This document shows positions 31,637 through 64,000 of a stretch of 64,000 nt of DNA, piece after piece. Every line of letters starts with the position of its first letter. Within the stretch, counting starts at the first letter, position 1. The notes under the pieces are model-generated. The model was not told where the DNA came from and did no database searches. It saw nothing but the letters and a program-made list of their open reading frames with translations. The stretch lies in the IMG/VR virus record IMGVR_UViG_3300042474_001633, positions 32,001 to 96,000 of that record; one strand, written 5' to 3'. The stretch comes from a virus. The position numbers were made by a program, and so were the translations under genes.

Positions 31637-31720
31637 CTTTACTAAAACTCGAGAATAGTTTCGCCAGAACTGTCTCATAATTGTTTATCATTGGATAAAC
31701 ACTATGGAAAGCGCCACAAC

Positions 31721-36283: not shown

Positions 36284-39200
36284 GTGGCTAATTCATATTC
36301 CAATTTCGCAGAACGCAGGATAAACAACCTGTCCAAGAATGGCGAATTAGAAATAGGTTTCATTCCCAAAATAGAGACCAAGGCCGAAAAACCAGAAGTA
36401 AATAAGCCTCCAGTAAAATATTCAAACCCGTATGAAGAATACATAAAGACATGGGAGCCGGGGGACGTAATACCGCTTGTTCCACCAGGCAAGAGAATGC
36501 ATTTTTGCACTTTCAACCCAAATATGCTGGATACAGATTCAACATTTTTTAGGTCAACACACAAACATTCCTCTCCGACGAAATTTAAATCGGGTGAACT
36601 GAATGACATCGAGTACAAGGTCCTTGGAAGGAAACTAAAGGACAGCCTTGACTCGCTACTGCGAAGAGCAGCCAAAACAAGAGGCTTATGGGTTGACGAT
36701 AAAAACAAGCTTCGCTGCCCTCCGGGAACACCAGCTGCAAACCAATTTACAGACATAACTGGCTCTAACTGCTTCATACCGTCACCAAGAACTGCCGCAC
36801 AAAGTGGAGCTCGTGCAGTGCGTAGAGCAACAGCTGGCGCAACCCAGATGTCAACCCAGGTTGGCGGAAGAGTTGCTAGTGGATTCGATGCAGCTAGAGC
36901 AAACGCTGAACAAATTAGAGAACTTGGTTTTGAAAGAGTTCAAGAAGCAATGGGGTACGGTGGCAGAATTGCGCCCACTCCACAAATGGTTAGCGATACA
37001 GTCTCGGGAGCCATGAGGGCTACGAGGTTTGGTCTCATACCAAACCCTTCAGCGAGAACTGGAGGCAAGCAGCGTGGAGCACCGAAGGGCGTCGGCAACA
37101 ATGTGTGGCAGCTTGGATTAAAAGAACAAGTCTGGAGAGGCAGAAGAGCCACCGAACTTGCTCGCTCCACAAGGGATAGATTTAATAACCCAAACCGACC
37201 AGACGGACTAAGACTCCCACCGAGTCAGAACTTCCCGGCCGGTAGACCAATCGGCGACATAAGCCAAAAGGCTCAATTCGTTTCCGCAATGGCCGAACTA
37301 TTTCCAAACGTTCCACAAGCAGAAATAGAAGAAATGTTTGACCAAGCAATTCCAATGAGCTTGAGCAGGATGGAAAGGTCAAAACTGAAGGCATCTTTGA
37401 TTCAATACTGGTACTCCTGGATGGAAAATGCAATTGCAAATCCAGAGCAGGCAAAATGGGTTACCTCTTTCGCGATAGATACGGAAATGGGGTCAGCGTT
37501 CGAAGTTAGATTTGATGCATTTGCTCCCTCGCCTTCAACGGGAGGAAGAAGAATTAGCCAAGCAGCATCAAACGCGGCTCAGGGAAGAACCGCAGAACAG
37601 GGTGGACTTCAGTTCTCCCTTGTTATGAATCCATGGGAAATGTGGTCACAGGTAAATCGCTCGGGCTTTGACAGAAATGGTCGAGCAAATGGAGTCGCTG
37701 ATTCTGTTGAGGGTGACATGCACTATTTGGCCAACCATGAGTGGGGCCACGTTGCGCACTTCTCGAGTGTTATGGAGACACTTGGATTCCAAACGCAAAA
37801 TCTTCAGAGATATCCGCTTGCACAAACACTCGTAAAACCACAGCAGGGTGGTCCCCAGTGGCAAAGACAGAAACAAGTCAATGCATGGATGATTGACTTT
37901 AGGCAAGCTGCGAATCCAACAGGAAACAGAAGTATTCAGCTGTTAATCGACTCAGCAAACAATCTAAGCAGAAGGCAATATATTCGCTCTGGAAGTTGGG
38001 GAGGTTCGACCGGGTACACAAGGCAAGACCTGGAGACCGATTTAAACAATTTTCATAATGCGCTAGCTGAGGCAATTGAAAACAACATCACCGATGATGC
38101 TGACGACCAGGAGTTGATGAGACAGTTTTCTGGTGGTGTTTATGCGGCAACATCAAACATAGAAGCCCGCGCAGAGTTCTTCGCATCCCGAAGATTGTTT
38201 GGAGACCCGGTACTAACAGGTGGGCAAACAGGAATCCCATCCACGGTTGATGAGTTCGCGCGAACAATGGCTTCAGCCCAGGGAGCCACACGGACGCAGG
38301 CACAATACCGTTCCCAGATGGACGACATTGGACAGAATGTTTTTAGTGTTCCTGGAAACGCATGGAATATTAGTGGTCGCATGGCTGGTTCTGGATTGCC
38401 ACAACAAAGGCCAACACTTAAAACACAGGCCGTCAGAAGAGCTGTAGACCAAAACTATCCACGAAGCAATAGAAATAGGAGTTCCTCGGCTATTACTGGA
38501 GCAATGAGGTCATCCTCATTACAGCAGAGAACCACTTCTTCTCGTGACTGGAAAAATCAAGACACGATAAGTTCAATAAACACAAACAGGCCATTCACCG
38601 AAGAGCGTCAATCGCTGCCGGGAATGCTGCAATCAGCATTGGGAACTCAGCAATCATCTACACCAATCGTTGGAAGGATGTCCCCGCTGGTGCCAACAAC
38701 GGTCACGGGTGTTAGGAATCGTTTCGATGGCAGCAGGTCTGGTGATGTCGACATCAAGGTCCACGAAATAAACGGCGAAAAAATAGTATTTGATAATCCC
38801 GACGCAATATCAATCGATGACTCATCAATAAAAATTATTCCTAAAAACCCATTTGAGATAACCGGAAAATCCAGAACCAGTAAGGAAGGTCGCGAATATT
38901 CAGAGAAGTGGCTCAATGCCCATCTAGGCAAAGGAGACATGGATTCGAATGATGTCGACGCCCTTCTGTATCGAGCATCACGCGGTGACACGGAGGCAGC
39001 AAAGGAATTCGATGGTTTAGCGGAAAAAGGAAGCAAGCGAGTCTCTGAAGCAGAAGGAAAATTGTATGAACCCATCGAACTTGATGAATACCAGGAAAGA
39101 ACAATAACCCGAGCTGGTCTTGAGGATTTGAGCCTAGATGACTTGTATGTTGTACATGAAACAAGTTACGAGCCAGAAATTGATGAAAATGGAGACATAA

Positions 39201-42200
39201 GCATCTCTCCTCGTTCTAACTTTGAGGAAACAACTGAATCCGGAAAGAAGGTAAGGGTTCCTCGCCACACGATTCACTTCGCATTAAATCACCTTGTTGG
39301 TGGACATATATTTAGGCAGCGCTCAGAAAAAGATACGACTATCTTAATAGCGCCACTGTCTCAGGTGCTAAGAGACAATCCAGATTCACTCGACAATCTA
39401 TATACGCTTGATACTGTTCTTACACCAAAACCTGGTGAGGGGATAAAGCTCAAATCAGGAAGCTTCCGAAGACTCACTGGTACACCAGACAAAGAAGCAA
39501 CAGAAGAGGCTGTTCGTCAGCAGCTAAACGAAATGGGTGCAACAAAGATTTTTAAAGCAGAATCAGCAGAGTCTTCAACTGACGCACAGGATTTAGCAGT
39601 CGGCAAAATAGCCAGGCAGCTGAGAACCCAATCGGGATTGCACGCAAACATCCCAAGCGGACAGGTCGAGCAGTATTTGATTCGCCAGGCTGGAAGTGGT
39701 GGTAGCGCTGAAGTGACGCTTCCGCCTAGTTGGGTGGCCGGAATGAGCAAAAACCATCGCCAAAGACTTGGTGATTCAAACTTCTGGAGCGATGCGAAAC
39801 CAGCCCCAATCACCGGCTTTATGAGAAGCGGCTCGACCCCACAAGCAGGACAGAGCAGAATCAAGAAAAACAAAGACGGTGTGCCTCAGTACCCACGGAC
39901 GCCAACCTACGGTCCAATGCTCGGTGAAACAGAAAATATTTTTGCTGGAGTTAATTCTTGGGAAGAATTTAAACAGAGATATAATGACCAGGAAATAGTC
40001 TTTCTTGATTATGAAACAACTGGTTTAGTATTCGACAAATATGGTCGCGCTACGGAAAACGGAAATCCGGTAGAAATAGGCGCAATAAAAGTAAAAAACG
40101 GACAAGTAATAGACAGATTCAACACATTTGTCAATCCGGGAAAGCCTCTGCAGCAATGGTCTAAAGACAACTTGCGCGACGCAGACGGAAACCCCCTCAC
40201 TGACCAATACCTACAGGGGGCTGAGTCTTTGGAGTCTGGGCACAAAAAACTTGTTGAATTTGCTGGACCAAATGCAATTATGGGTGTTCAAAACGCCGCA
40301 TACGACAAGAACGTACTTGAAGACACTCTCCGTGAAGCGGGAATTGAATGGCAAGCAAGGGGCTGGATTGACCTCAAAGATATGGCCGGCATGACACTCC
40401 CAAGGTACACAGATGAAAATCCGGATGGACCACATAAGACAAATAAAGATGGAACAAAATCACCATCCAATGGACTTGCGGACATAACAAGATACCTCGG
40501 GGTCCCTCTTGGCAAAGAGCATCATAGAGCAGACAAAGACGCTGAAGCAACAGCGGAATCAATGCGTCTTTTGATTGATGGTGCAATTGAAAAGAATTGG
40601 TCAAAAGACGCTCTGGATAGAGCCAAGCGAAGTGCGTACGTCAAAAAAACACAAGACGATTTTGACTCAGATGTAAAAGAATGGGAGTCCGAGCTTGCAA
40701 AGTACTTAGGTGATGGAGTGTCGGGAAAGATGTCGTCATCACCTGCTTTGCGCTCTGCTCCACAGTTTGGCAGAAGACAGTCTCGTGAGTTCTATAGCTC
40801 GGTACCAAACAGTAAATTATGGAGACCGGAAACTCTCGAGCAAAGCGAACCATCACGAATTGCGAAAAGACAAGAAATAATCAAAGACATCAAAGGATTC
40901 ATAGAGTCTGGCGATGGCGACGCAAAATACATGTCTGCAATGAATGGACTTGACCCAGAATTTGCTAACTACATGCGCAATACCGAAGACCGCGAGATTC
41001 TGGCAGACCTTCGTCAGGCAGCAGTTGAATTTCATGCTGGCATCGACCAGAGACCACGTCTAAACGTAAACACTGCAGAACTTTCGAGCTTAATGGAAAA
41101 TGGGCTACGAAGAGACGATTCAGGCAAACCGCGACGTCTGTCAGAGAGAGTAAAAGCCTACGAAGCAGACATTGGAATTTCTCCAGACCTTCCCGACGCA
41201 GAACGCCCAATAACTGGATACATGGTGCATTCCGATGGCGACTTCGCTGAACAAGAGGCTTCATTTAGGGAGTTTTCTAATAAAGTTGATGTCAATTCTC
41301 CACGTTATAAGTTTGACCTTTTTAAGTCAAGTAACGAAAATCGCAACAATGGTTTCAATTCTATTTTTGGTGATGCTGAAATAATTCTAAAACCAGAAAC
41401 CGGCCAAAGGACAGCTTACGGCAACGGTGACGCCCTTGATAATCACATATTTCCTGTCCTGGCAAACTCAACAGATTCTGACGAAATAGGTCGCGCACTC
41501 ATTGACCCTAACGGAAGATTTGACGAACGTGAATCAAATTCCATCGAACTTCTCTATGGAAAATTTAAAAATGATTTCAATGCCTACAGAAAAGATAACG
41601 GTCAAACTCGTCCACGGATAAGCGGAGCATGGGGAAATAGGGACGCCCTGATTATGGGCGGAATAGAGCCGAGTGATATCGAAGAGGTGAGGGTTCCGTT
41701 TAATTCTCTAGATATTACAAACTCAACCACGCCGGAAGAATTTGCAAAAAAACCAAGAGAACTTAAGTACTTACCCGTTACTGAGTATGTAGACGAAGGC
41801 CCTGCGATTGCTTCCTCCGGCGCAGGAGCACCACCGCCGCCACCACCGCCAGATGACCCTGACAACAACATGACAGACGAAGAAATTTCTAAAATTCAAG
41901 AAAAAATGAAACGGAGTTTTGCGGCCACAAAAGAAGAGCAAAAAATAATCGAAGATATTTTGTCTGGGTTAGAGCCAATTAATGCGATACCCAAAAATTT
42001 AGCCATACGAATTGACAACGTTAACGAATACAGGAAAATCTCAGACGACTTTAGAAATCTAAGAAGAATTGAAGAAGCCGAAAGACTTCAGAGATTAGCG
42101 AAAGCAAGAGGTTTTAATCTTGCAGTAACCAATGACTACGGATTGGACGTATTTGATGGGCGCTCATTCTCAAGTAAGGCTCCCAAGTCAAAAACATCAA

Positions 42201-42364
42201 AAGAAGTTATTGAGGCAAAAATAGACAAGCAGATAGAAGAACTTGTTGAGTCAATGCGTCAGGCAAAGTTCAAAAACATTAAAAATATTTCTGACTCCAG
42301 AAGCAGACTGGAAAAGATACAGGAAGAGTTTGATAAACTCACAGACGGCAGGAATGAAAAGTGA
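36284..42364 (+). CDS. Giant multidomain (polyvalent) protein: zincin metallopeptidase, unknown domain, DEDDh exonuclease, DUF3626-like domain
   Basis: 2026 aa. HEWGH at 37736. FLDYETTG/QNAAYD/HHRADKD. RPITGY...FGDAEIILK...RTAYGNGD. Confidence 0.8.
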   Translation: MANSYSNFAERRINNLSKNGELEIGFIPKIETKAEKPEVNKPPVKYSNPYEEYIKTWEPGDVIPLVPPGKRMHFCTFNPNMLDTDSTFFRSTHKHSSPTKFKSGELNDIEYKVLGRKLKDSLDSLLRRAAKTRGLWVDDKNKLRCPPGTPAANQFTDITGSNCFIPSPRTAAQSGARAVRRATAGATQMSTQVGGRVASGFDAARANAEQIRELGFERVQEAMGYGGRIAPTPQMVSDTVSGAMRATRFGLIPNPSARTGGKQRGAPKGVGNNVWQLGLKEQVWRGRRATELARSTRDRFNNPNRPDGLRLPPSQNFPAGRPIGDISQKAQFVSAMAELFPNVPQAEIEEMFDQAIPMSLSRMERSKLKASLIQYWYSWMENAIANPEQAKWVTSFAIDTEMGSAFEVRFDAFAPSPSTGGRRISQAASNAAQGRTAEQGGLQFSLVMNPWEMWSQVNRSGFDRNGRANGVADSVEGDMHYLANHEWGHVAHFSSVMETLGFQTQNLQRYPLAQTLVKPQQGGPQWQRQKQVNAWMIDFRQAANPTGNRSIQLLIDSANNLSRRQYIRSGSWGGSTGYTRQDLETDLNNFHNALAEAIENNITDDADDQELMRQFSGGVYAATSNIEARAEFFASRRLFGDPVLTGGQTGIPSTVDEFARTMASAQGATRTQAQYRSQMDDIGQNVFSVPGNAWNISGRMAGSGLPQQRPTLKTQAVRRAVDQNYPRSNRNRSSSAITGAMRSSSLQQRTTSSRDWKNQDTISSINTNRPFTEERQSLPGMLQSALGTQQSSTPIVGRMSPLVPTTVTGVRNRFDGSRSGDVDIKVHEINGEKIVFDNPDAISIDDSSIKIIPKNPFEITGKSRTSKEGREYSEKWLNAHLGKGDMDSNDVDALLYRASRGDTEAAKEFDGLAEKGSKRVSEAEGKLYEPIELDEYQERTITRAGLEDLSLDDLYVVHETSYEPEIDENGDISISPRSNFEETTESGKKVRVPRHTIHFALNHLVGGHIFRQRSEKDTTILIAPLSQVLRDNPDSLDNLYTLDTVLTPKPGEGIKLKSGSFRRLTGTPDKEATEEAVRQQLNEMGATKIFKAESAESSTDAQDLAVGKIARQLRTQSGLHANIPSGQVEQYLIRQAGSGGSAEVTLPPSWVAGMSKNHRQRLGDSNFWSDAKPAPITGFMRSGSTPQAGQSRIKKNKDGVPQYPRTPTYGPMLGETENIFAGVNSWEEFKQRYNDQEIVFLDYETTGLVFDKYGRATENGNPVEIGAIKVKNGQVIDRFNTFVNPGKPLQQWSKDNLRDADGNPLTDQYLQGAESLESGHKKLVEFAGPNAIMGVQNAAYDKNVLEDTLREAGIEWQARGWIDLKDMAGMTLPRYTDENPDGPHKTNKDGTKSPSNGLADITRYLGVPLGKEHHRADKDAEATAESMRLLIDGAIEKNWSKDALDRAKRSAYVKKTQDDFDSDVKEWESELAKYLGDGVSGKMSSSPALRSAPQFGRRQSREFYSSVPNSKLWRPETLEQSEPSRIAKRQEIIKDIKGFIESGDGDAKYMSAMNGLDPEFANYMRNTEDREILADLRQAAVEFHAGIDQRPRLNVNTAELSSLMENGLRRDDSGKPRRLSERVKAYEADIGISPDLPDAERPITGYMVHSDGDFAEQEASFREFSNKVDVNSPRYKFDLFKSSNENRNNGFNSIFGDAEIILKPETGQRTAYGNGDALDNHIFPVLANSTDSDEIGRALIDPNGRFDERESNSIELLYGKFKNDFNAYRKDNGQTRPRISGAWGNRDALIMGGIEPSDIEEVRVPFNSLDITNSTTPEEFAKKPRELKYLPVTEYVDEGPAIASSGAGAPPPPPPPDDPDNNMTDEEISKIQEKMKRSFAATKEEQKIIEDILSGLEPINAIPKNLAIRIDNVNEYRKISDDFRNLRRIEEAERLQRLAKARGFNLAVTNDYGLDVFDGRSFSSKAPKSKTSKEVIEAKIDKQIEELVESMRQAKFKNIKNISDSRSRLEKIQEEFDKLTDGRNEK

Positions 42365-42705: not shown

Positions 42706-42777
42706 CATGTATTTAAATCACAGTATTTTGCGTACAATTAAATTCAGGGGTTTATTCACTGGTTGCAAGGAGACCAA

Positions 42778-43422
42778 ATGAGTCTGGTCAACAAAATTAT
42801 GAATGGCGATGTCCAAATTGCCGTCGACACAAAAGCAGCAGGACCTGCTGGCGCCATAATACCTCAAGAAAATATTACCGGTGATGTACTCAGGGGGTAT
42901 GGACCGCGCAGGGGCAATCTTGAGCGCCTCCTTCGTTACTGGAGACCAATTATGCGCAAGCCTGGCGGGTTCAGGAGATGCCGAGTAATTCTTGCCGACC
43001 ACCCAGAGCTTTACCCACTTGAAAGAATATGCGCCTGGTTGCATCACGAAACAACTGGTCTGTGGCCAAATGAAGGGTGCCACCACCCAGGAATGAAAAA
43101 CTGTCGCAAGAAGATGCGCGGGGTTGTTCGTGGCTCACTCTACTCTGACCAGGAATTCAACAATAGAATGCGCAAACTGACATCGCGCAGTGGCAGGAAG
43201 GCTGTAGAATTTACGGGTATACGCTCGGTTGATGAGCCCTTTTCCCCAGTCATCACGCAGGATGATTGGACCCATGCAGTGAAAGTATTACAAGATTTCA
43301 TAGACATGGAACCGGACTTCGTTAAGTACGTGGAAGACGAAAAAAACTGGGAACACGTCGATGGGTATGTTATCGATAAAAACGAATTGGAGTCGCTAGA
43401 TGCGAACAATATTGAGTTCTGA
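42778..43422 (+). CDS. Hypothetical head-module protein
   Basis: AAGGAG RBS before ATG 42778. GNLERLLRYW...PGGFRRC...CAWLHHETTGLWP Cys/His motif. Confidence 0.7.
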   Translation: MSLVNKIMNGDVQIAVDTKAAGPAGAIIPQENITGDVLRGYGPRRGNLERLLRYWRPIMRKPGGFRRCRVILADHPELYPLERICAWLHHETTGLWPNEGCHHPGMKNCRKKMRGVVRGSLYSDQEFNNRMRKLTSRSGRKAVEFTGIRSVDEPFSPVITQDDWTHAVKVLQDFIDMEPDFVKYVEDEKNWEHVDGYVIDKNELESLDANNIEF

Positions 43423-45451
43423 TTGCTGCCCGTCCCAGGAGATTGTAAAAGTTAGACATATTTCTCCGTCTTTCGCACTATCTAGAACTAACCTTTTTAC
43501 AGCGCCAATTTATTCTGTCAACGAAAGAAAATCAATTATTGATTTCAAATGCGCAATGCAGCGCAGAGGCGTAAAAAGTGCTTACGAAATAAAAGTCGGA
43601 GCGACTGGCTCGGACAGCAGAATTCTTCAATCTCTCCAGGGACTTGGTTCTGCCGTTACTCCGGGAAACTTTTCCAACGTGCGAAGTCCTGTTAGGTCAC
43701 GAATTTACTCAGCTCTCACCCCGGGTGGTGGTCGAGGAGTTCCTGGTGGATTTGGCGCACTCAAGCCAGAGCGTGGATATAGATGTCCAGAAGGGTATCA
43801 ATTCGGTGGAAGATTTACTGACTCACGTTTTTCTACATGTGGAAAACAACTATTCGACCTTCCTGGAATCATAGGCGCAACAATCGCCTCTGTTTTGCGT
43901 GGCTCTCGTCGTAGCCCATCCTTCCAGGATGTCGGTGGCACACGTGTTAAGCCAGTGTCTGTGGCTGGTGACGTAATCCAGTCGCGCGCGCCACAAATTC
44001 CAAAAGTTACTGGTGCTAACAGACAGCGCAGAAATCGCTCCGTCGATGACATAGTCGGACAGATGTCGCAGGTAAATGAAGCCTACATGAGAATGGTGCG
44101 GCGCGACGGCTTCATCTTGGAGCCGGTAGTTTCTCCTGCAGTTCTTAGGACAATCCCCGACAACAGAGATATGGAAGGCGCAACATTCCTGATGAATGCT
44201 TTGACGTCGGATTCAATTGGTGGAGAAGAACTTGGAATGCTTTCGAATACCGGCATTGAAAAACTATCCTATGTCCTATCTGGAGGTTCAACTGTTTCCA
44301 TCGGGAAAGCTCGCCCGCTAACAGTTGGAGAACGACGCAAGCTTGGTAGAACTGTGGCCACGGCGGAGAAGCTGCGTGCCAATGATGACCCGGTTCAAAA
44401 ATTAAAATTCATCGCAGAGGAAATGGGCGATGGAATATCTTATGAAGAAGAGTTTAAAGGAATAAAAAACCCGAATGAAATCATTAAAGTCAACCTCCCA
44501 GCAGGTGCTGGCAAGCGAACAATGCGCAGGTGGCATTATGAGACTTTCTATCGAAAGAAAAAGAAGTCAAAGCAGTCCGCTCGCTCCACAGAGCTAGAAG
44601 CAATTCCCGAAGACGATAAAATCAAAGACCTTGCTTCTGCGGTCCGTCACCTTAATAATGGTGGTTCGATTGAGAATATTTCATCGAATGTTCGGTCGGA
44701 GGCTGTCAGTCGTAGCGCAATGTACAAGACTGGAAAAATACGAAACGGTGTATTGATTCACGAGCGTGCCGATGGACAAACGGTGTTTGAAATAACACCT
44801 GATGAGAACTTTGAACATCTGGGTGCCGCACTGGCATCAGAACTACAGCGCTCAATGGGTCTTATTGCGCCAAAGGTTCGTTTGGCTGGTGCTGGAAAAA
44901 AGCGCAACTATATGCTTGGAGAAGCTCAGGATGCAGAAATGTTTGGCGTTCAAGATAGGACAATGGACATTGCTGACCTCCCCTCGGAGGACGTTGTCGG
45001 AATTCTAATGTCCGACTATCTCACCGATACCAGGGATAGAAACCCTTCCACGATTGCGCCAATACGCGTCGGTGGCAGAATGCGTGCAGTTGCTTCTTTG
45101 AATGGAAGTGCTGGTCTCTCGGGTATGACCTCGACGGAAATACGCGGAAGACGACAAATGCAAGTAAACGATTTCTTCAAGAAAAAGCAGCAGAGAATAT
45201 ACGCTGAATATTTTGAAAAACTTCAGGCCCAGCAGCGCAAGAGGGCGTTAATGCTATTTGATAAGCTGCTCGAACAAGCAGGAGAATTTGATTTTAAGCG
45301 ATTTAGACAAATGCTCTCAATAGATGGACAGCTTTCTGAAGCAGAATTACTACATCTTGGGATTGTCGAAAAAATATTTGAACAGCGTGTCAACATACTT
45401 AAATCATCATCTGGAAATTTCAAGAAACTGATTGGCTTATCGATTAGATGA
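43400..45451 (+). CDS. Multidomain protein with a C-terminal HipA/PI3K-like kinase fold
   Basis: EHLGAALASEL..MGLIAPKVRL and DYLTDTRDRNPST. Carries the shared RCP leader motif. Confidence 0.6.
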   Translation: MRTILSSDCCPSQEIVKVRHISPSFALSRTNLFTAPIYSVNERKSIIDFKCAMQRRGVKSAYEIKVGATGSDSRILQSLQGLGSAVTPGNFSNVRSPVRSRIYSALTPGGGRGVPGGFGALKPERGYRCPEGYQFGGRFTDSRFSTCGKQLFDLPGIIGATIASVLRGSRRSPSFQDVGGTRVKPVSVAGDVIQSRAPQIPKVTGANRQRRNRSVDDIVGQMSQVNEAYMRMVRRDGFILEPVVSPAVLRTIPDNRDMEGATFLMNALTSDSIGGEELGMLSNTGIEKLSYVLSGGSTVSIGKARPLTVGERRKLGRTVATAEKLRANDDPVQKLKFIAEEMGDGISYEEEFKGIKNPNEIIKVNLPAGAGKRTMRRWHYETFYRKKKKSKQSARSTELEAIPEDDKIKDLASAVRHLNNGGSIENISSNVRSEAVSRSAMYKTGKIRNGVLIHERADGQTVFEITPDENFEHLGAALASELQRSMGLIAPKVRLAGAGKKRNYMLGEAQDAEMFGVQDRTMDIADLPSEDVVGILMSDYLTDTRDRNPSTIAPIRVGGRMRAVASLNGSAGLSGMTSTEIRGRRQMQVNDFFKKKQQRIYAEYFEKLQAQQRKRALMLFDKLLEQAGEFDFKRFRQMLSIDGQLSEAELLHLGIVEKIFEQRVNILKSSSGNFKKLIGLSIR

Positions 45452-54674: not shown

Positions 54675-57600
54675 ATGGATGATTCCGCAGAAATGCAAAA
54701 CATAGAAGAAAAGGTGATTTTTGGCGCTCGCGTCGTGAATCCATCCGACCCCGACGTGTTTGACAACCCGGATTCGGCCAGAGTTAGAGCAAGACAAATC
54801 GGTTGCATTGGAATCAGAAGATATAACAACCGAAGCGGAGCCGCATCATGGATGCCATGCACAAACGAATCTGACTACAGGAGAGTATCTGGCATCGGCC
54901 ACTCAGGTAGAAGATTTAGAAGACAAGAAATTGAGCGCGAGGTACGCAGGGTAATCGGCGGTCGTGGTGGTCGCAAGGTCGACTCCAAAAGCGCAAACTA
55001 TACAAAACCAGAGGTTCGAGAAACTCTAAAGAAAAGAATTATGGCTGGCTCAAAGGGTGGAAACCCGGGTCAGTGGAGTGCAAGGAAGGCTCAGCTACTT
55101 GCAATCGCATACAGAAAAGCTGGTGGTGGCTACAAGGGTGGAAAGACAAAAAAACAACGTTCACTTTCGAAGTGGACAAAACAAAAGTGGCGCACTTCTG
55201 ACGGCAAACCTGCTCGTCGTGGAAACGTGACGCGACGCTATCTTCCTGCAGCAGCATGGAACCGTCTAACTGTCGGCCAACGAGCCGCAACGAATAGAAA
55301 AAAAATTCAAGGGAGCAGAGAGGGACGTCAGTTCGTTGAAAACACAGAAGCAGCGAAGCGTGCACGCAAGCGTTCGACCCGCGGGCAAAAACACATCGAG
55401 TTTTACGAGGATTTCGAGTTTAAGGCAATCGGCTCACGGATAGGAAAAGTAACAAGACAAAGAAATTTTGGCTCATCCACTGGTGGGCGGGTAGCTAGAA
55501 GAATAGGTGGAAAGCTTCGCGGTGCATTCGCTACCTTCGACCCCAGTGCAAGAGACGCAGATGGAGACAACATCGTCCAGGAAGGAACTATTCAAGAACG
55601 ACGTATTGGTACGAGAATCACCCAGGCTGCACGGAGAGCTGCCGCAAGTACACCAGACAACATTGGAAGAATACGACGTCAACCACAGGTTGATGAAGCA
55701 CGTGCTTTTGGTAGAGCTGAACGACTTGCCGACGGAAGATACGCGACAACGCTTCCTTCTAGTATTGCGCGGACACAGCCTTCACCAAGAAAAATTCGAA
55801 GAGGTTCTACACAGACTAGACGCATCGAAGAGACCAAGCCGAAAAAAATACGTCAGTCAAAGCGCCCAGAGACCAAGCCAACAACGGAAATCCGTGCGGC
55901 AGTGCGTGATGCAAAACCGGAGCCGAAACTATACCCACCTCAGTACGAGCGTGACGCAATTCGAAGCATTAGGGATAGTCGTCCAGAAATATACAGACAG
56001 TTCATCACTGGTGAATCAACTGTTGCCGAAATTGCAGACCGATTTGATGTCGTTAGGGACGAAATACAACAAGCGATTAACCAACATAAAAAGTTAAGAA
56101 AATCGAACCGGAATAAATTCACAAACAACAATCCACGATTAACCAGAGCAATTGAAAAGTTTTCCAACTCCAGAAACGCATTCACGGAAGCAATATCCGA
56201 AGGCAGGTTCCGAGACTGGGACTCCATGGTTCAATACGTTTTTAGAAATCCTGATTCATCAAAAAATCGCGACAATATGGTTCAAGACCTGTTCGACACA
56301 TTCAAGACAGGAAGGAACCCGGACCGCTCAAGCAATATAAGTCTTGGCTATGTGCCAAGTGTTAGAGAAGATGACAAGAGACTTGTAAAAACTTTCTCCG
56401 ACTCACGCAAACCGCGACCAGGATTCCGCGGTCTCGACCAGTTCGAAGTGCAGCCAAAGAGAACTACTTCTGCTGCTTCCTTTGAACAGCGCACTCCGCG
56501 TTCGTACAGAAGAGACGACTTGATTGCAGACGCAATGGCTGGTGGTTACACAATCACCGGCAAGATGTCGGGCTCAATGACGCCAAAACAGGAGCAAGAG
56601 TGGAAAAGGAAAGAATGGAAGCGCCAGCAACTCAAAGGATTTGCCATCGACCCGAATGCTTCTGCGAAATTCCCTTCATTAAACGCAGTTCTTGCTGGCA
56701 GAGACGTAACCAAGTCCATAGAGGCGCTTGATGCTCTTGACGATACCCAATTGGATAATTTATGGACATCGACAATTGGAGATATATCTTCGGTCCCTGG
56801 GATGTCCGTTCCTGCATATCAAGCAAAGAATGCGCCACTGTCCCCGAGGGAGCTTGCTCTTGCCGCATCAGTTAAGAGACCGCTAGTTAAAGCGTTTGTT
56901 GATGAATACAAGAAGTTTAATGCAGGTGGCCTAATTGCCGGCCTGGATATCGATGCAATGAGTGATGCTGATATTCAGTCATTCTTCAATACTTTTGTTT
57001 TGCCAGAGTTAACAAACACAGGCTCGCCTTCTGTGCAGGACGTCGAGCAGGCAGCACAACTTCTTCCAACCCAAGCAAGACTGTCAGATGCAGAAAGACT
57101 ACTAGCGGCGCTACCGTCATCATTTCAAACTCTTGAATACAGAATGAAGGTCGGTCGCAAGGTGCTTGCCGAAGAGGGGTACGACGTTGATACCCCAGAA
57201 TTCGACGCAGCTCTTCAAAGATTCCTCGATGAATCAGAGCAAAAGGACTTAGACAATTTCAACGAACAGCTAACCACTTGGCTCAATGGCGGGAAGCCAG
57301 TAAAAGCAGTTAAGAAAATCCCAATCAATCCGGATACAAACGAACCTTACACAGAACAAGAACTGCGAGACCAGATTGACGCCGTATCCGAGGCAATTGA
57401 AGTAATTCAGGAAAATTTTGACCCTGAAATGTTCAATGAATTGCAGCAGATAAACGGCATAACTTCTCTCCTAAATGAAGCAATGGCTCTTGAGACATTC
57501 CTAAATGACCCTACAAAAGTTCCCGACGAAAGCCTTCTGCCGATAAACACATCAACTGGGAAACCGTATACGTTGCGCGAATGGATTGAGTCTGGGGCAT

Positions 57601-60600
57601 TCAAATTGTTTCGTATGTACGACAACCCAGCTACAAAAAAACCATTCACAGACGCAGAACTTATGGAAGTTCTCTTCAACCTTGCATTACAACGCAGAGA
57701 AATAGAAAACAAGATAGGGCCATCAATCCTTTCCGACTTCAACAAGCTCGAAGCTTTCAACAGAAGGCTGATTAACGCACTAGCTGGTTTAGCAGAAGAA
57801 GACGAAGACGAATTTGAGCTATCGCCCGGAGACCTGCTTGATGGCGAAGAAGAAGAAGGAGAAGAAGGAGGCATGCAGCCAGACCCTCCCTCGATTGAGG
57901 AAATGCAGCAAGCAAACCAAGACATCCTCGACTCCCAGGCGGAGCGCCTACAAAATCGCCCTGAAGTTGGCGATGAGTTCACCAAGGATGATGTGAAAAA
58001 TATACGCGACACAATATCCTCCATCAAGAAAAACCAAGAACCAACCACTGCAGCTCCAGATACTGATGAATACTGGGAAAGATTCGGTCCTTATGATGGC
58101 GACAAAAATCACCCTCTCAACCAGGTAACTGACGCCGAGGGTAAAGAAGTTGGTCTTAATTCAAAAGAATACCAAGTAGATAAAAATTTGTGGAACGAGT
58201 ATCTGGCTGGAAACTATGCACAAGAATGGTCAGACATACACAACAGTCACATAATTGCACGATATACGGACGTGCCGGAAGAACTTAGTCGTTACAACGG
58301 CGAGTTCGAAGAGGGCGCAGACCCAGCGTTGATTGACCCCAATATTCGGTGGGACAAACTAATCGATGTGCTTCAGCAGACAAACCCTGAACTATTCCGC
58401 AAAGACCCGAAAACTGGCGAGGTTGTTGGGGAGACACTCGATAATCTTGCTCAACAACTTGGTCTGCAGAATTATGGTGGGGCATCATTCTCAGCAAGAG
58501 CAGGACGAGTGACTGATGCGTCTGGAGAGATTATTGATACCAGCGGACCGCAATACAGAAGATTGCTTGGTGAACTCGCAAAGGATGAGCGCTTAAAGCA
58601 AAATGAGCAGTATTTGGGTTCTACGAAAGCTGCCGCAAAAGAACGTGCGAAGCTTTGGAACTTATTTGAGGTAGGGACTTTAACACCAGAAGAAATTGCT
58701 TTTCAGGAAGAAATTCGAGACGTAAACACTGTTGTCCAGGCATTGCATATGCACGAGGTTGATAACAGTATACCAAGTGCAAACAGGACCAATCTCGATG
58801 GAGTGGCAAGAACGGCCTTTCAGACAAGAAAAGCGGCATTCGAAAAAGCCAAGACAAAAAAACTAATTGAAGGTATACGCGAAATAGCAAGACTTTCAAA
58901 CCCGAATGTCTCCACTAGGGCTACAGCTAGTGACCTTCAGAACACAATCGATAGGGCAATTACGTATCTTGACGAAACAATAAAGAAGATTGGAATTGAA
59001 TACGACCAGTTCAGAAGAACGAAACAGATGCTTCACGGCATGATTTCTTCCCTACTAAAAACGAGACCGGGATTATTCGAGGTCGACCCCAAAAATCCAA
59101 ATCAACGAAATAGATTCGGCCAGACCGGTTGGAATAGGGCCAAAGAACCGCTCCTTAGGTATATGAACCGCATCTATAAGTGGAACGAAGAAATGTTTGG
59201 CTATGTCGACAGGAGAACAGGCGAGACGAAGCGCGGGCTCTTGCGCATCCTGGTCGAATATGAGCGCTCTCTTGCTCTTCAGACAGGCGACCCGGCTGGT
59301 TCGTCATCTACAACCGCAATTTTTAATCGTGCGCGGCAAAGAAAACAAGAGCTCGAGCGATTCAAGGGAGAATTGCAGTCGCTATCGCAACAGGCGCAAA
59401 GTCAGGGCATTACCGGATTCATGAAGGGTGCTGGGGCGCTTGGACGAGCTGAAGATTCTGCTCGCAGAGGTGCCCGGAGGGCCGCTGAAGGAAGATTCGG
59501 ATTTGCAGACCCTCGAATTCTCAAGAGGTATGACCGCGCGGGATTTGATGTAACCAAGCCAATGCTTGGAAACGCATCGGGGTTTAATAAGCGATTCAAT
59601 CGGGAGATACAAGAGGCAATTCGTAATAACAATAAAAGCATGGAGAGTTCCCCGGCGTTTAATCGGCTTAACCAGAATGAAAAGTCTTACATGAGACTAC
59701 TAGAAGCCGTGAACAATACACCAAGGCTCTTTGGGAATGAAGAAAATCCTGCTCGCTTACGTCAACAAACGGGTCGAGTCGGTCAAACTGGTTTGAACCC
59801 TAGCGTTCGCACACCAAGATATGTAACTCCATACGTAAACAGAAGACCAACAGAATTTTACAAATCCGGCATAACAGGCAGAATGGAAGGCACTTCTCGC
59901 AACGAAAGAATTAAGAATTTTGGCGGCAAAGACAAACTAAAGATTGGTGGATTTCTAGAAGTTGTGCCAGAAGAACTAGAAGACGGTCGCTGGTACATGG
60001 TCAATAGGCATGGTGAAATAATGTCACCAGAGTCTTATACAAACGAAGACGCCGCCTACAAGGCGAGCCTGGCTCTTGGGAGAAAATTTAGAGAACAGCA
60101 ACGTGGCCAAGAGCTTCCACAAAACACAGCTGAGTGGGAAGCTGCGCGTCTTGGACTCAGACAAAGTGGTTATCGAGCTGCCTCGGTTCACCGTCAAAAC
60201 CTTGCAGACATTGCGCCAATCAAGGCTGACGGAACAAAAAACGAATACATATTTGCTGTTGACAAACGCCCCAAGCAAAGGGCTGGAGACGCATTAATTA
60301 TCAGGAAGAACCCATCTACTGGCGCGCTCGAGGCATTGGTCATCGAAAGAGGTTTTGGCCCACATAGAAAAGATGGTGAAGGAACCGTTGCTCTTCCTGG
60401 TGGATTTTTTGACCAAAGCAAGGGAGACGCGGACCTTTTCGATTCAGCTCTACGAGAAGCCCTCGAAGAAACAGGACTTCGTCCGGAAGACCTAATTACT
60501 TCACAGAAGCTGGGAACAATCGATTCCCCAGACTGGGACCCTCGTTTTGCCGAAGGCATAGAAGTTTCTGCAGTTCTCGTGGAAGTTCCATCCACTTGGG

Positions 60601-63600
60601 AACCAACAGCTGGCGATGATGCAGAATCAGCTCGATTCGTTCCACTGGTAGACCTTGCCAGTGGAGATATTCCACTTGGATTCGGACACGCAGCGTGGTT
60701 CGATGCAGCTTTTTCCGCCCATGAGGACCCGGAATTATCGTCCCTGGGAGAAAAATTCTCCCACCTCAACTGGTTGGCAAGACAACGTCAACAGAGAATA
60801 ATACGAGACGCTAACGAATTGCGCGTGGCCTACAACGCCGAAAGACTTGAGCGAGACCTAACTTTATTTGACCAAGAAAATCCACGCCTAAAACTTTTTC
60901 CAACAGAACTTCCAGACACAACAAATGGGGGCTGGAGGCCAACTGGTTCGGAGTTTGATGCAATATCCAAGCCGAGAGTGGCAAGAATCATCAAAGAAGC
61001 ACATGCTCATCTAGACGCTCTGATTAACACAGAGAGAGCCAAGCGTGGATTGCCACCAAAGAGAACCAAGAGAAATCTTCCAGAGATACCGCCTGGGGCA
61101 GTATCTGGTGCGATGCGTGCAGCAATGACCGAAATGGGCCCTGACGAATTTGACAAGGTAAGTCGTCTTGACAACGGAAGAGATAACCCAGCTGCAAGAA
61201 AGTTTATTGATGACGTAATCAACTTGCGTATGGCCGGTATGGATAAATACTCAATCGCTAAATTCATGTCAGATAAAGCAGCGCTTGAATTCGCGATACG
61301 CGACAATGGAAATTCCCCAGAACCAAAAGACCTCATTAGAAGTCATAATTCAAAAGCGGATAGAGGCAGCGAGCTAGCCGGCCTGGCTCCGACAGATGAA
61401 CTTATTTTTAGAATAATCTCTGAAAGAAAACTCAACACAACTGGCAACTCACGAAGCAGGTTCTCCACCGCGGTTCGTGGAGTCGAGCCGCAGGATAAGT
61501 TTACGAAGCAAAGAAACGATGCAGCAAAAGACGTGATGACGCTCGCCCTTGAGGGGATGTCAACAGCAGAGATAGCAGACATCTTGGATATTTCCAAAGG
61601 GAGAGTTGGAAGCACCCTTCGTCGAATGGGCATGCAAGACAGGGATGGCTCTACAACTATTGGTGATATGAGTGATTCAATTCGCCGCTATGAGCAGTCC
61701 CCAAATCAAAAAGCCATGTATGTGGACTCAATGTATAAGCGGATGTCTCTTTCGGAAATATCCAGAAAGTACAAACTTACCGAATCAGAGGTTAGAGAAT
61801 CGGTTGAGTCATACAGGGATAATGTGGAATCGCTGCAGCCGGAACACCACGCCATCTACCGTAAAGCGCTAACCGATATCGAAGCAGATGTACTTTCCCG
61901 AGACGAAGAGCAAATTACAAGAATGAGACTCGATGGCCTTTCGATTTCTGATATATCTGAAGTCACAAAAATGGACAATGGACGAGTAAAGACCATAGAG
62001 CAGCGAGCTCTTTATAAACTTCGCAGAAACAATTCTGATGAATTTATGGGAGTCAAGCGCGACCTCGACGTAATCAACTACAGAAGAACGCCAAGCATGA
62101 ACTACATGGTTGGCGGTATGACCGATATTGAGAGAGATGGCGTCTACTTCAGCGCGAGAGACCTTAGAGACTTCCGAAACAACGACAAAGACATATACAT
62201 AATGAATCAGCATATGGGGTCTTCCGTGAAGGATATTGCCTCAAGATTCAAGATGTCAGAAGATGCTGTGCGCCAATCAATCGAATCCTACTCGTCAGCA
62301 ATTGAAAAAACTGACACATTCAAACACAAAGCTCTTCGGCGCGTTCTCGCGACGAATAATTCCTCCCTTAGTGGCGCGGACATTGACATTATAAACATGC
62401 GTAATGACGGTGCATCAATCGACGATATCGCTAGGTATTTTGAGGTCCCCTCAGAGTCCGTGAGAGCTCGACAGATTGCTGTTATGTCCAAGTTGAACAA
62501 CTCTGATGGAATCAGCGGCGCAATGAAGGGTGTTCCGAATATTGAATCACGCAATTTATACAGAGAGCTTGGTGTTGATGAATCAGCTCCCCAACGCGAG
62601 ATTGACGATGCTTTTACTTCTGAGGTTTCTGGAATCATGTCCAGGGCGATGAAAAATGAACCGAACTCGGTTGACCGCTTGTATACAATCTCGGAGGCCT
62701 ACAAGGTTTTGTCCAACCCTGCAGCCAGAGAGTCGTACGATAACTTCGACTTTGACGACAACGACGACTTTATGGAAATTCCAGAGCTTGATAAGTTGTT
62801 TGACTCTTGGCCAATGTCTCAATATGTTGAGCCATCAACAAATAAGATTCGTCCGCCGTGGGTCGCAGACGCGATACTTGGCGAATACAGACAGTACGAC
62901 AACTTTGTCAAAATGCCGCATCATCTTGGCTCTGATGAAATAACTGATGACATCGACGATGGTTTCTTGGGCTTTAACATAAATGATTCCGATAGAGACC
63001 TGGCGATTAGCGACATGTATTACCGCGAGCCGATTCCTGGAACAAAAGAATGGGATATGGGCCAGCGAGCGGCTGACCGAGCTCGAGCCAGCGGAGACAC
63101 AAGAATAACGTTTGACAAAGACGGATTTATTTCTGGGTCCACTATGAATTTTGACCCAAGATTTGATGACCCTCAGTCTCCGGTTTATATCGGTGATAGA
63201 TACGGCGGCCCCCAAAAAGGAGCACGGCTAGACCAGCCAATGATTTCTGGTGGAATGGATTCTGAGTCAAAAAAAAAATTCAGCAAACTACTCCCTGAAA
63301 GTCTGAGCGAAAGCTCCACTAGATATCCAGGTAATTCCCGTCCGTCCAAAAAGGATATGACGCTCATCAAGACCTCGTCGGATAGGCTCCGAAGTACGGA
63401 AATTCTCCCGATAGCCGAAGTCTTTGACTTTGAATTCAGCGGACCAGATGGCGAGCGTTACGAATCGGGCATCCTGACAATTGCACAAAGACCCGTAGTT
63501 GTCGTCCGTTTTTATGACGATATCAATGTTCCCTTCTACATAAGTTCTGGACGCGGCGGAAAGAAGGATGTCGCTACGGGCAAATGGTATCCATTCTGGG

Positions 63601-64000
63601 GTATTGGAAAAGACGGCTGGTTCAACAAGACAAGCGGCGACGACATCAACAACTTCTATGGAATTCCAGAACTCAGGGAAGCCGCAGAACGGCTGAATCA
63701 AATACTTCCTGCTGATTCGTTGCCTGACGCCTCGATTAAGTGGAATAACGGAGACACGAAATGGAGAGCAAGCTCTGAGGAAAGAAGAAGGCTGCGTCAG
63801 TCACCAAACTACTCCCCCATCAAGTCCTCACTTATTCCGGTAGTAAACGGCAAGCGTGAAGCGGTTGCCCGTAGTGGCAGCTTGCAGCAATTGAGCTCCA
63901 ACATCGTTGGCGCTAGAAAACAATTCAATAAGCTGAGAAACGATTATGTAATCGCAGGGAAGATGGCCACTCCACCAGCATCGAGCCCGCGAAAAGGTGC
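54675..64000 (+). CDS. Giant polyvalent protein (>3,100 aa, runs off the window): DUF5872-like, Nudix hydrolase, sigma-70 region-4-like HTH array, HPD-less J domain, unknown domains
   Basis: Hand translation from ATG 54675 (MDDSAEMQNIEEKVIFG) found no stop in the long segments read, and the same frame is open at the window end (YVIAGKMATPPASSPRKG). Motifs GGNPGQWSARKAQLL, ALPGGFF...ALREALEETGL, RVKTIEQRALYKLR, ISEAYKVLSNPAARESYD. Confidence 0.88.
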   Translation, partial: MDDSAEMQNIEEKVIFGARVVNPSDPDVFDNPDSARVRARQIGCIGIRRYNNRSGAASWMPCTNESDYRRVSGIGHSGRRFRRQEIEREVRRVIGGRGGRKVDSKSANYTKPEVRETLKKRIMAGSKGGNPGQWSARKAQLLAIAYRKAGGGYKGGKTKKQRSLSKWTKQKWRTSDGKPARRGNVTRRYLPAAAWNRLTVGQRAATNRKKIQGSREGRQFVENTEAAKRARKRSTRGQKHIEFYEDFEFKAIGSRIGKVTRQRNFGSSTGGRVARRIGGKLRGAFATFDPSARDADGDNIVQEGTIQERRIGTRITQAARRAAASTPDNIGRIRRQPQVDEARAFGRAERLADGRYATTLPSSIARTQPSPRKIRRGSTQTRRIEETKPKKIRQSKRPETKPTTEIRAAVRDAKPEPKLYPPQYERDAIRSIRDSRPEIYRQFITGESTVAEIADRFDVVRDEIQQAINQHKKLRKSNRNKFTNNNPRLTRAIEKFSNSRNAFTEAISEGRFRDWDSMVQYVFRNPDSSKNRDNMVQDLFDTFKTGRNPDRSSNISLGYVPSVREDDKRLVKTFSDSRKPRPGFRGLDQFEVQPKRTTSAASFEQRTPRSYRRDDLIADAMAGGYTITGKMSGSMTPKQEQEWKRKEWKRQQLKGFAIDPNASAKFPSLNAVLAGRDVTKSIEALDALDDTQLDNLWTSTIGDISSVPGMSVPAYQAKNAPLSPRELALAASVKRPLVKAFVDEYKKFNAGGLIAGLDIDAMSDADIQSFFNTFVLPELTNTGSPSVQDVEQAAQLLPTQARLSDAERLLAALPSSFQTLEYRMKVGRKVLAEEGYDVDTPEFDAALQRFLDESEQKDLDNFNEQLTTWLNGGKPVKAVKKIPINPDTNEPYTEQELRDQIDAVSEAIEVIQENFDPEMFNELQQINGITSLLNEAMALETFLNDPTKVPDESLLPINTSTGKPYTLREWIESGAFKLFRMYDNPATKKPFTDAELMEVLFNLALQRREIENKIGPSILSDFNKLEAFNRRLINALAGLAEEDEDEFELSPGDLLDGEEEEGEEGGMQPDPPSIEEMQQANQDILDSQAERLQNRPEVGDEFTKDDVKNIRDTISSIKKNQEPTTAAPDTDEYWERFGPYDGDKNHPLNQVTDAEGKEVGLNSKEYQVDKNLWNEYLAGNYAQEWSDIHNSHIIARYTDVPEELSRYNGEFEEGADPALIDPNIRWDKLIDVLQQTNPELFRKDPKTGEVVGETLDNLAQQLGLQNYGGASFSARAGRVTDASGEIIDTSGPQYRRLLGELAKDERLKQNEQYLGSTKAAAKERAKLWNLFEVGTLTPEEIAFQEEIRDVNTVVQALHMHEVDNSIPSANRTNLDGVARTAFQTRKAAFEKAKTKKLIEGIREIARLSNPNVSTRATASDLQNTIDRAITYLDETIKKIGIEYDQFRRTKQMLHGMISSLLKTRPGLFEVDPKNPNQRNRFGQTGWNRAKEPLLRYMNRIYKWNEEMFGYVDRRTGETKRGLLRILVEYERSLALQTGDPAGSSSTTAIFNRARQRKQELERFKGELQSLSQQAQSQGITGFMKGAGALGRAEDSARRGARRAAEGRFGFADPRILKRYDRAGFDVTKPMLGNASGFNKRFNREIQEAIRNNNKSMESSPAFNRLNQNEKSYMRLLEAVNNTPRLFGNEENPARLRQQTGRVGQTGLNPSVRTPRYVTPYVNRRPTEFYKSGITGRMEGTSRNERIKNFGGKDKLKIGGFLEVVPEELEDGRWYMVNRHGEIMSPESYTNEDAAYKASLALGRKFREQQRGQELPQNTAEWEAARLGLRQSGYRAASVHRQNLADIAPIKADGTKNEYIFAVDKRPKQRAGDALIIRKNPSTGALEALVIERGFGPHRKDGEGTVALPGGFFDQSKGDADLFDSALREALEETGLRPEDLITSQKLGTIDSPDWDPRFAEGIEVSAVLVEVPSTWEPTAGDDAESARFVPLVDLASGDIPLGFGHAAWFDAAFSAHEDPELSSLGEKFSHLNWLARQRQQRIIRDANELRVAYNAERLERDLTLFDQENPRLKLFPTELPDTTNGGWRPTGSEFDAISKPRVARIIKEAHAHLDALINTERAKRGLPPKRTKRNLPEIPPGAVSGAMRAAMTEMGPDEFDKVSRLDNGRDNPAARKFIDDVINLRMAGMDKYSIAKFMSDKAALEFAIRDNGNSPEPKDLIRSHNSKADRGSELAGLAPTDELIFRIISERKLNTTGNSRSRFSTAVRGVEPQDKFTKQRNDAAKDVMTLALEGMSTAEIADILDISKGRVGSTLRRMGMQDRDGSTTIGDMSDSIRRYEQSPNQKAMYVDSMYKRMSLSEISRKYKLTESEVRESVESYRDNVESLQPEHHAIYRKALTDIEADVLSRDEEQITRMRLDGLSISDISEVTKMDNGRVKTIEQRALYKLRRNNSDEFMGVKRDLDVINYRRTPSMNYMVGGMTDIERDGVYFSARDLRDFRNNDKDIYIMNQHMGSSVKDIASRFKMSEDAVRQSIESYSSAIEKTDTFKHKALRRVLATNNSSLSGADIDIINMRNDGASIDDIARYFEVPSESVRARQIAVMSKLNNSDGISGAMKGVPNIESRNLYRELGVDESAPQREIDDAFTSEVSGIMSRAMKNEPNSVDRLYTISEAYKVLSNPAARESYDNFDFDDNDDFMEIPELDKLFDSWPMSQYVEPSTNKIRPPWVADAILGEYRQYDNFVKMPHHLGSDEITDDIDDGFLGFNINDSDRDLAISDMYYREPIPGTKEWDMGQRAADRARASGDTRITFDKDGFISGSTMNFDPRFDDPQSPVYIGDRYGGPQKGARLDQPMISGGMDSESKKKFSKLLPESLSESSTRYPGNSRPSKKDMTLIKTSSDRLRSTEILPIAEVFDFEFSGPDGERYESGILTIAQRPVVVVRFYDDINVPFYISSGRGGKKDVATGKWYPFWGIGKDGWFNKTSGDDINNFYGIPELREAAERLNQILPADSLPDASIKWNNGDTKWRASSEERRRLRQSPNYSPIKSSLIPVVNGKREAVARSGSLQQLSSNIVGARKQFNKLRNDYVIAGKMATPPASSPRKG

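Follow-up and report, generated by a model that had tools for sequence, protein, structure and literature searches.

We report on a 64,000-nucleotide stretch of DNA (hereafter the window), which comprises positions 32001-96000 of the 160,282-bp virus record IMGVR_UViG_3300042474_001633 (label G000), and on a pentapeptide motif, [IV][STVA]GxM, that recurs in four large proteins encoded there, the giants A, B, C and D. In the first 29 kb of the window the minus strand carries tail genes (sheath, a 1,648-amino acid (aa) tape-measure-like protein and fibres) together with the gene for the large terminase. The plus strand from position 29348 constitutes the head module, in which the genes follow in the order portal-MuF, S78 protease protein, an acidic 514-aa protein, A, a 219-aa open reading frame (ORF), a 683-aa ORF, B, C and D (Table 1). 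Hence, approximately 30 kb of giant genes are positioned between the gene for the maturation protease and that for the major capsid protein.

A sequence-only reading of the window had listed 16 copies of the motif, each of which was recovered in position and in frame. In total, A, B, C and the in-window part of D (8,047 aa) contain 18 copies compared to 0.33 expected from composition, and in 5,000 shuffles of the same sequences the mean was 0.32 copies and the maximum four; the earlier estimate had been less than one chance copy in roughly 8,000 residues. The full-length giants have 19 copies (0.39 expected), with one further copy in D past the end of the window, and of the 28 G-x-M tripeptides in A to D, 19 are preceded by I or V two residues upstream. 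Across the whole genome, counting ORFs of 100 aa or longer, the motif was confined to the giant-gene cluster except for two matches in the tape-measure-like protein. It had also been noted that the codons vary, and we find seven codons at the first position (ATT, ATC, ATA, GTC, GTG, GTA or GTT) and all four GGN codons for the glycine, which argues that the constraint acts on the peptide. Three in-window copies beyond the 16, ITGYM at 41210, IVGQM at 44051 (in the 683-aa ORF) and VSGIM at 62625, look like non-functional in-domain or chance matches. With respect to the tape-measure-like protein, the window copy and three homologues hold two, one, two and zero motifs, respectively, with approximately 0.25 expected in each; these matches are statistically marginal and located in a Gly-rich region, and they could reflect either tape-measure processing or a composition effect.

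The 15 residues on each side of the sites are depleted of hydrophobic residues (fraction 0.19 versus a background of 0.27, p=1e-6), and domains predicted with Pfam are located between sites: RNase_T at A1239-1425 (between sites 1176 and 1479), NUDIX at D1880-1994 (between 1733 and 2143) and Sigma70_r4 helix-turn-helix (HTH) domains at D2285-2450 (between 2143 and 2613), while a weak DnaJ match begins 14 residues past D site 2613. The proposal in the sequence-only reading that the copies bracket recognisable domains is confirmed for these four and for the conserved HEWGH zincin signature in A, while the OGFr-like domain suggested for C was not confirmed by Pfam. In the AlphaFold (AF2) model of A1150-1520, which was built on six homologues (mean predicted local distance difference test score, pLDDT, 76.6), residues A1189-1477 were modelled with confidence and both flanks, including both sites, had pLDDT values <50; ITGFM corresponds to model residues 27-31 and the low values extend over model residues 1-39. 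The fold of this exonuclease cassette is that of DnaQ/DEDDh, with Foldseek matches to the PolC, epsilon and DinG exonuclease domains (probability 1.00). The AF2 model of A1-1200 (five-sequence alignment, mean pLDDT 39), which is of low confidence overall, gave pLDDT values of 23-33 and no secondary structure for A aa 731-824; it is usable solely for indicating a broad lack of structure at approximately aa 690-860. The two sites flanking the exonuclease cassette lie outside its modelled fold; the copy at 41210 is in a conserved domain segment and that at 62625 within the weak J-domain match.

Homologues of A with 83%, 58% and 36% identity retain the sites while the flanks diverge, and among five homologues W694, N695, I696, G698, M700, I737, G739 and M741 of A are invariant even though the surrounding linker diverges. 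In more distant comparisons the motif is still present in the orthologous linker, shifted by a few residues, and such drift within diverging linkers is what short linear motifs usually show where the chain is disordered. In the homologue of D in G005 (L103:6402-16793) one site is duplicated in tandem, ISGRMTSISGRM. Among the cassettes of the same protein are a Zeta-toxin kinase domain (74 bits) and a strong DnaJ domain (67 bits).

Searching IMG/VR with the capsid protein identified approximately 390 relatives, of which 80, each at least 73% identical, were kept for analysis. Relatives with capsid proteins that are 74-83% identical carry other motifs at the same boundaries, and the motif classes are mutually exclusive among the proteins encoded upstream of the capsid gene. 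Five types were distinguished: [IV][STVA]GxM, in G005 strictly ISGRMG (18 observed in the giant ORFs tested, about 0.5 expected); GP[VI]GxM in a 5,553-aa ORF of G002 (counted as P[VIST]GxM, 11 observed, 0.12 expected); R[LFM]SSG[RKAG] in G004 (counted as [LFM]SSG, 20 observed, 0.37 expected); RGM[AR]SR in G028 (counted as GM[ARS]S, 13 observed, 0.11 expected); and [DE]GF[AS]S[RG] in G029 (counted as GF[AS]S, 15 observed, 0.12 expected). Common to all five is a core consisting of a hydrophobic residue followed by S/T/A, then S/G and then R/K/A/G. A given cassette bears the motif of whichever lineage hosts it, as illustrated by the end of the exonuclease cassette, which reads '...ESELAKYLGDG-VSGKM' in the window, '-VSGKM' in L010, '-ISGRM' in G005 and '...ESELSQYG-LSSGR' in G004. 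Moreover, inter-lineage BLAST matches of cassettes begin and end at sites; A1201-1474 matches G004 residues 3147-3420, which are located between the G004 sites 3139 and 3422, and D3096 onward matches G002 from residue 2932, right behind a PVGKM site. On a quick capsid tree IxGxM appears in two places, as one supported clade and as a grade at the base of the LSSG clade, and for this reason it may be the ancestral type. No repeated motif was detected in G026, where the cargo is split into separate smaller genes, or in G027, which keeps a 2,464-aa ORF. Two cultured actinophages whose portal and capsid proteins are related to those of the window phage, the Gordonia phage Chidiebere (L014) and the Streptomyces phage Gilgamesh (L015), showed no IxGxM enrichment, and no de novo motif search was made on either. 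Both have large cargo-like genes in the interval from portal to capsid gene: gene 48 of Gilgamesh (MN234216) encodes a hypothetical protein of 4,624 aa, and the products of Chidiebere genes 25-30 include an RNA ligase, a VIP2-like ADP-ribosyltransferase and an HTH protein of 971 aa. The two phages could be tractable models.

The protease protein also carries variants of the motif behind its catalytic domain (Table 1), and 120 homologous protease proteins (101 thousand residues in total) contain 142 IxGxM copies. In sister lineages the S78 domain is itself the N-terminal domain of a motif-bearing ORF, i.e. in G004 (4,740 aa), G001 (2,947 aa), G028 (2,330 aa) and G029 (4,905 aa). None of the 20 sites in G004 is located within a Pfam domain (S78, HTH, KTSC, a 606-aa UvrD helicase, RNase_T and ArdC-N + MPTase), for which the probability by chance is ~0.002. 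Across lineages the S78 catalytic domain is nearly invariant, which fits with the motif core that they share; its catalytic Ser is part of a conserved EWSIGY segment. DUF6321 is fused behind S78 in the window lineage (31691-34336) and is a separate ORF downstream of the capsid gene in LSSG types (L064:11985-13622 and L020:11461-12726).

Table 1. Features of the window and of the adjacent capsid gene; positions are given relative to the first nucleotide of the window unless a record is indicated.
Feature	Position	Strand	Remarks
1,648-aa Gly/Ala-rich tape-measure-like protein	12931..17877	-	IAGAM at 16120-16134, VSGAM at 15379-15393
Portal protein fused to MuF-like domain, first gene of the head module	29348..31636	+	Pfam Phage_portal 173 bits, Phage_Mu_F 43 bits; PHROG portal
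881-aa protein: S78 (HK97-type) prohead serine protease aa 38-182, DUF6321 aa 229-300, long C-terminal extension	31691..34336	+	PF04586 42 bits, PF19846 102 bits
TMGRM, variant G-x-M site after DUF6321 in the protease protein	32753..32767	+	VIGRM or IAGRM in homologues (alignment of five)
ITGRT, degenerate site in the protease protein, Met lost in the window	33632..33646	+	ITGRM, VAGRM or ISGRM in homologues
514-aa protein, long acidic tract, conserved C-terminal half	34669..36213	+	Alignment; sole family match a weak PepSY
Giant A, 2,026 aa: leader, zincin, two short spacers, unknown domain, DEDDh exonuclease, two C-terminal cassettes	36284..42364	+	
RCP-x8-FT-x6-C leader motif of A	36713..36772	+	Invariant in A homologues
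VSGAM, A aa 240, leader/zincin boundary	37001..37015	+	Kept in 4/5 homologues
HEWGH zincin signature, A aa 485	37736..37750	+	Rival candidate protease
ISGRM 38369, ITGAM 38492 and IVGRM 38666, with 41- and 58-aa spacers between	38369..38680	+	Least structured stretch of A
ITGFM, A aa 1176	39809..39823	+	~10-13 residues ahead of the exonuclease fold (AF2 model)
DEDDh/DnaQ-like exonuclease domain, A aa 1239-1425	39998..40558	+	Pfam RNase_T 44 bits
VSGKM, A aa 1479, 3 residues past the last helix of the exonuclease cassette	40718..40732	+	LSSGR at the orthologous position in G004
ITGYM, A aa 1643, inside a conserved domain segment	41210..41224	+	ITGYV, ISGHV or ASGYM in homologues, conserved context
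683-aa conserved protein with RCP leader	43400..45451	+	Single IVGQM at 44051, not conserved
Giant B, 2,129 aa	45448..51837	+	One site, ITGAM 46510, after the leader region
Protein C, 784 aa	52217..54571	+	Sites ISGAM 52841 and VVGRM 53390; 52841 kept in 4/4 homologues
Giant D, 3,915 aa, extends 2,419 nt beyond the window	54675..64000	+	NUDIX, sigma-70 r4 HTHs, DnaJ-like
Sites of giant D: ITGKM, ITGFM, ITGRM, VSGAM, ISGAM, ISGGM, IAGKM	56553, 59409, 59871, 61101, 62511, 63243, 63951	+	VSGIM 62625 inside the J-domain match
HK97-like major capsid gene, directly 3' of giant D	G000:C1:98768-100105 (L013:12768-14105)		Beyond the window

Among the remaining features of the giants, the RCP-x8-FT-x6-C leader recurs in the 683-aa ORF (43781-43840) and in B (45997-46056), and its surroundings (~70-100 aa) match, according to BLAST, the N-termini of separate giant ORFs of other lineages (L043, L100 and L101); C and D are without this leader domain, which may be a capsid-targeting or incorporation domain. 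Downstream of its single site B has a 1,772-aa stretch without any site or recognisable family, and family searches with B and the 683-aa protein matched no family. The ITGYM copy at 41210, given its sequence in homologues, is probably not a processing site. The two spacers of A (41 and 58 aa) are located within aa 701-794 (38384-38665), and the first of them has the conserved residues L712, V717, R718, A720, V721 and R730 and a predicted helix. If released, the two would be small internal peptides, similar in this respect to the head peptides of T4.

The canonical pentapeptide was not found in the 514-aa acidic protein, which may be a scaffold. The capsid gene downstream of D was assigned on the basis of PHROG (major head protein, E=2.5e-65) and of matches to the HK97 and D3 capsid structures (E about 1e-52). 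The major capsid protein has a coiled-coil N-terminal scaffold domain, and its variable loop (ALPSG-TPG-SFG) carries a 'DSRLGSFG' insert in LSSG-type lineages only. The phage, a myovirus, probably has an actinobacterial host, because the genome has two WhiB-family genes (G000:C1:111570-111767 and 142570-142761, outside the window), because the nearest cultured relatives of its portal and capsid proteins are from Gordonia, Brevibacterium and Streptomyces phages (36-49% identity), and because one related protease protein, on a 135-kb contig, is labelled by NCBI as belonging to an Ilumatobacteraceae metagenome-assembled genome; this contig is probably a mis-binned phage.

Taken together, the best, albeit unproven, reading of the motif is that it has a role in proteolytic processing. 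Specifically, and as a tentative interpretation that we would not yet call probable, the pentapeptide would represent processing sites in the linkers of head-packaged polyvalent proteins, with S78 as the most likely enzyme. The giants would then consist of effector cassettes, among them the zincin, the DEDDh exonuclease, Nudix, the sigma-r4 HTHs and the J domain, strung together by disordered linkers, each linker bearing a short motif specific to the phage lineage. The polyproteins would be taken into the prohead and cut at the motifs by a phage protease, most likely the S78 prohead serine protease, and the freed domains and short spacer peptides would be injected along with the DNA. Processing is favoured on the basis of one motif per boundary, the concerted switching at orthologous boundaries, the protease fusion, the linker position and the conservation, and S78 is considered to be the most likely enzyme since sister lineages have it physically joined to the polyprotein. 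The motif core that the lineages share suggests, by analogy with assemblin-type proteases, a putative cut beside its small residue. The sequence-only reading had already proposed that effector cassettes are packaged as polyproteins with a site-specific processing signal; linker position, conservation, concerted replacement and the S78 fusion add support for this, and the cutting itself is predicted. In contrast, its suggestion that cleavage might generate a new N-terminal Met is not supported, given that the orthologous sister-lineage sites (LSSGR and GFASR) have no Met.

Some observations weigh against processing by S78. Its catalytic domain is almost invariant while the motifs differ, and S78 alone may therefore not be reading the lineage-specific positions. 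The major capsid protein is without the lineage motif at the expected maturation site. For phage D3 the mature capsid N-terminus is residue 114 (PMC12749128), and by homology to D3 the maturation site should here be near aa 145, a region that does not differ between the lineages. The capsid segment K[ST]IGQMF (~aa 105) is conserved whatever the motif type; as a candidate for a motif-sharing maturation site it was rejected on account of this conservation and of its probable location inside the scaffold domain (D3/HK97 homology). In addition, encapsidation of the giants we infer solely from gene position and the protease fusion, and their cleavage is an unproven prediction.

These points have to be considered together with the possibility that the motifs are processing sites but that the enzyme is an embedded zincin, i.e. 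the HEWGH cassette of A or MPTase-PolyVal in sister lineages, acting in cis or in trans and in the head or after injection. We regard this as unlikely, although it accounts for several observations. The zincin family changes with the motif, which at the same time counts against S78: the A-type HEWGH was found in IxGxM records only (G000, G005, G006, G007, G008 and G010) and PF18818 (MPTase-PolyVal), for which genome G000 has no match, in LSSG/GFAS records only (17 records, 9 complete genomes among them), and the association is without exception in ~23 records. The zincin of A has no Pfam match and is of an unclassified type; its H480, H485, E486, G488, H489, E627 and E631, the catalytic residues included, are invariant in five homologues. 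The cassette is itself bracketed by sites (A240 and A696; 1049 and 1377 in G029), the near-invariance of S78 across motif types and the lack of the motif in the capsid protein point in the same direction, and release of the domains of polyvalent proteins by embedded peptidases has been predicted (PMC5512222). On the other hand, the association follows the clade structure on the capsid tree and may represent very few independent events. MPTase-PolyVal is always located behind ArdC-N, with which it forms a self-contained ArdC-like anti-restriction effector, and G004 and G029 both have MPTase-PolyVal, yet their motifs are LSSG and GFAS, respectively. Furthermore, a related HExGHxxHF zincin is encoded in G026 and G027, neither of which has a repeated motif; a hidden Markov model of the A-type zincin gave no match in G026, G027, G028 or G029, where the similarity is local and limited to HExGHxxHF. 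We therefore favour S78 as the processing enzyme and place the embedded zincin second.

Less likely still is that the giants remain intact and that the pentapeptide is an uncleaved short linear motif, either a docking site in each linker (for scaffold, portal, chaperone or an ejection component) or a structural linker signature. Sites that lie in disordered linkers and change in concert from lineage to lineage would be compatible, too, with co-evolution with a partner that binds them, and N4 packages its virion RNA polymerase as a full-length chain (PMC5512222). However, a single docking signal per polypeptide would suffice, yet there is one motif per boundary and, as in the ISGRMTSISGRM duplication, there are also tandem copies. 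The motif is also absent where the cargo sits in separate genes, and on this explanation the fusion to a protease domain is hard to understand.

Cutting by a host protease, e.g. a Prp-like enzyme, appears very improbable. GFASRG and RGMASRG resemble a Prp site, and F-A-S-R-G and M-A-S-R-G of the sister lineages recall the F↓A-S-K-K site of L27 and phage 80alpha, a phage that uses the Prp of its host. Nevertheless, PF04327 was without match in the five genomes of this phage family that were searched, the probable host is an actinobacterium and, to our knowledge, Prp is not typical of Actinobacteria, and five motif types among phages with near-identical capsid proteins fit better with a phage-encoded reader. 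Finally, it is hardly credible that the signal acts at the nucleotide level, be it that translation starts internally at the ATG or that the motif provides microhomology for cassette recombination. An ATG does close the motif, and cassettes have been shuffled among proteins as well as lineages, but the codons at the remaining positions vary freely, the GGN codon is just 3 nt upstream of the ATG, unlike Shine-Dalgarno spacing, and the orthologous sister sites (LSSGR, GFASR and GMASR) are without Met. The earlier idea that the motif makes cassettes interchangeable is thus upheld in part, in that cassettes are shuffled and homology breaks at linkers; being lineage-specific and encoded by varying codons, the motif is neither a universal adaptor nor a recombination signal.

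Returning to processing by a phage-encoded protease, the broader proposal, which we consider to have close to but below an even chance of being correct, is that widespread uncultured actinophages (~140-170 kb) encode true polyproteins. These would have a fused or adjacent HK97-type protease followed by up to ~20 injected cassettes separated by lineage-specific cleavage motifs, which would have been rewritten in concert at least four times (IxGxM, PxGxM, RLSSG, RGMASR and GFASR) while the capsid protein and the protease stayed ~75-80% identical. If so, the protease and its substrates would have co-evolved in the manner known for RNA-virus polyproteins, sequence alone would map where dozens of unknown anti-host domains begin and end, and the concerted motif switches would offer a natural system for studying the joint change of a protease specificity and many substrate sites. 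It would also mean that a double-stranded DNA phage makes use of polyproteins with a maturation protease at the N-terminus and as many as 20 sites, which would link polyvalent proteins to prohead-protease biology. Should the motifs be cleavage sites, the sequence alone would delimit ~20 cassettes here and hundreds in relatives, and these cassettes, most of which are of no known family, would be candidates for injected anti-defence or host-takeover functions.

Polyvalent proteins were described by Iyer, Burroughs, Anand, de Souza and Aravind in 2017 (PMC5512222) as giants with 2-15 or more unrelated effector domains, among these ArdC-N, MPTase, nucleases, HTHs, Nudix and helicases, and were predicted to be delivered along with the DNA and set free by peptidases embedded in them. 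The proteins described here are alike in having many unrelated domains per chain (RNase_T, NUDIX, Sigma70_r4, DnaJ-like and HEWGH zincin in A and D; UvrD, KTSC, ArdC-N, MPTase and RNase_T in the G004 relative) and in their virion-gene neighbourhood (terminase, portal-MuF, S78 protease, capsid protein and tail sheath). Relatives of the window also carry PF18818 and PF08401, as polyvalent proteins do; an embedded PF18818 is frequent but not obligatory in polyvalent proteins, and here it is missing from the window genome and present in 17 LSSG/GFAS records. Iyer et al. (PMC5512222) define no boundary motif, and in their text we found no fusion to a prohead serine protease.

The arrangement also resembles that in T4 (gp21, L/I-x-E) and phiKZ/SPN3US (gp175/gp245, A/S/G-x-E), where the gene for the prohead protease likewise belongs to the head module, a short consensus motif is common to several packaged proteins, the protease also trims itself and the processed proteins are ejected into the host (PMC10052503, PMC5694885); gp245 of SPN3US, for example, cuts head and ejection proteins at A-X-E (PMC10052503). 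As in these phages, the consensus motif of the giants also occurs in the protease protein (TMGRM; ITGRM, VAGRM or ISGRM in homologues). The differences are that the protease here is of the S78/HK97 type and not of the T4 gp21 type, that the motif lacks Glu and has a small residue as its putative P1, and that the capsid protein does not share the motif. In SPN3US 13 of 14 sites remove N-terminal propeptides, whereas the sites here separate many cassettes in one chain. Moreover, the motif has switched several times among close relatives, and the processing is here predicted from sequence.

Herpesvirus assemblin and HK97 gp4 belong to the same fold class as S78 and cut scaffold or capsid precursors at one or two sites. 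Assemblin cuts at (V/L/I)-X-A↓S, with a hydrophobic P3 and a small P1, and this resembles the shared motif core; we know of no comparable string of 15-20 cargo sites. In the literature searched we did not find described a boundary motif in polyvalent proteins, its concerted replacement among close relatives, or S78 fused to polyvalent proteins of two to five thousand residues. As in polyproteins from RNA viruses of eukaryotes (picornavirus 3C, potyvirus NIa), a protease domain is part of the chain and short motifs at the boundaries differ between relatives; this is an analogy only, since the genome type and the protease folds are unrelated and since the chain here would hold cargo of the virion and there the replication machinery. 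Hence, polyvalent proteins and processing by prohead proteases are each already known, and what appears to be new is their predicted combination with lineage-specific boundary motifs.

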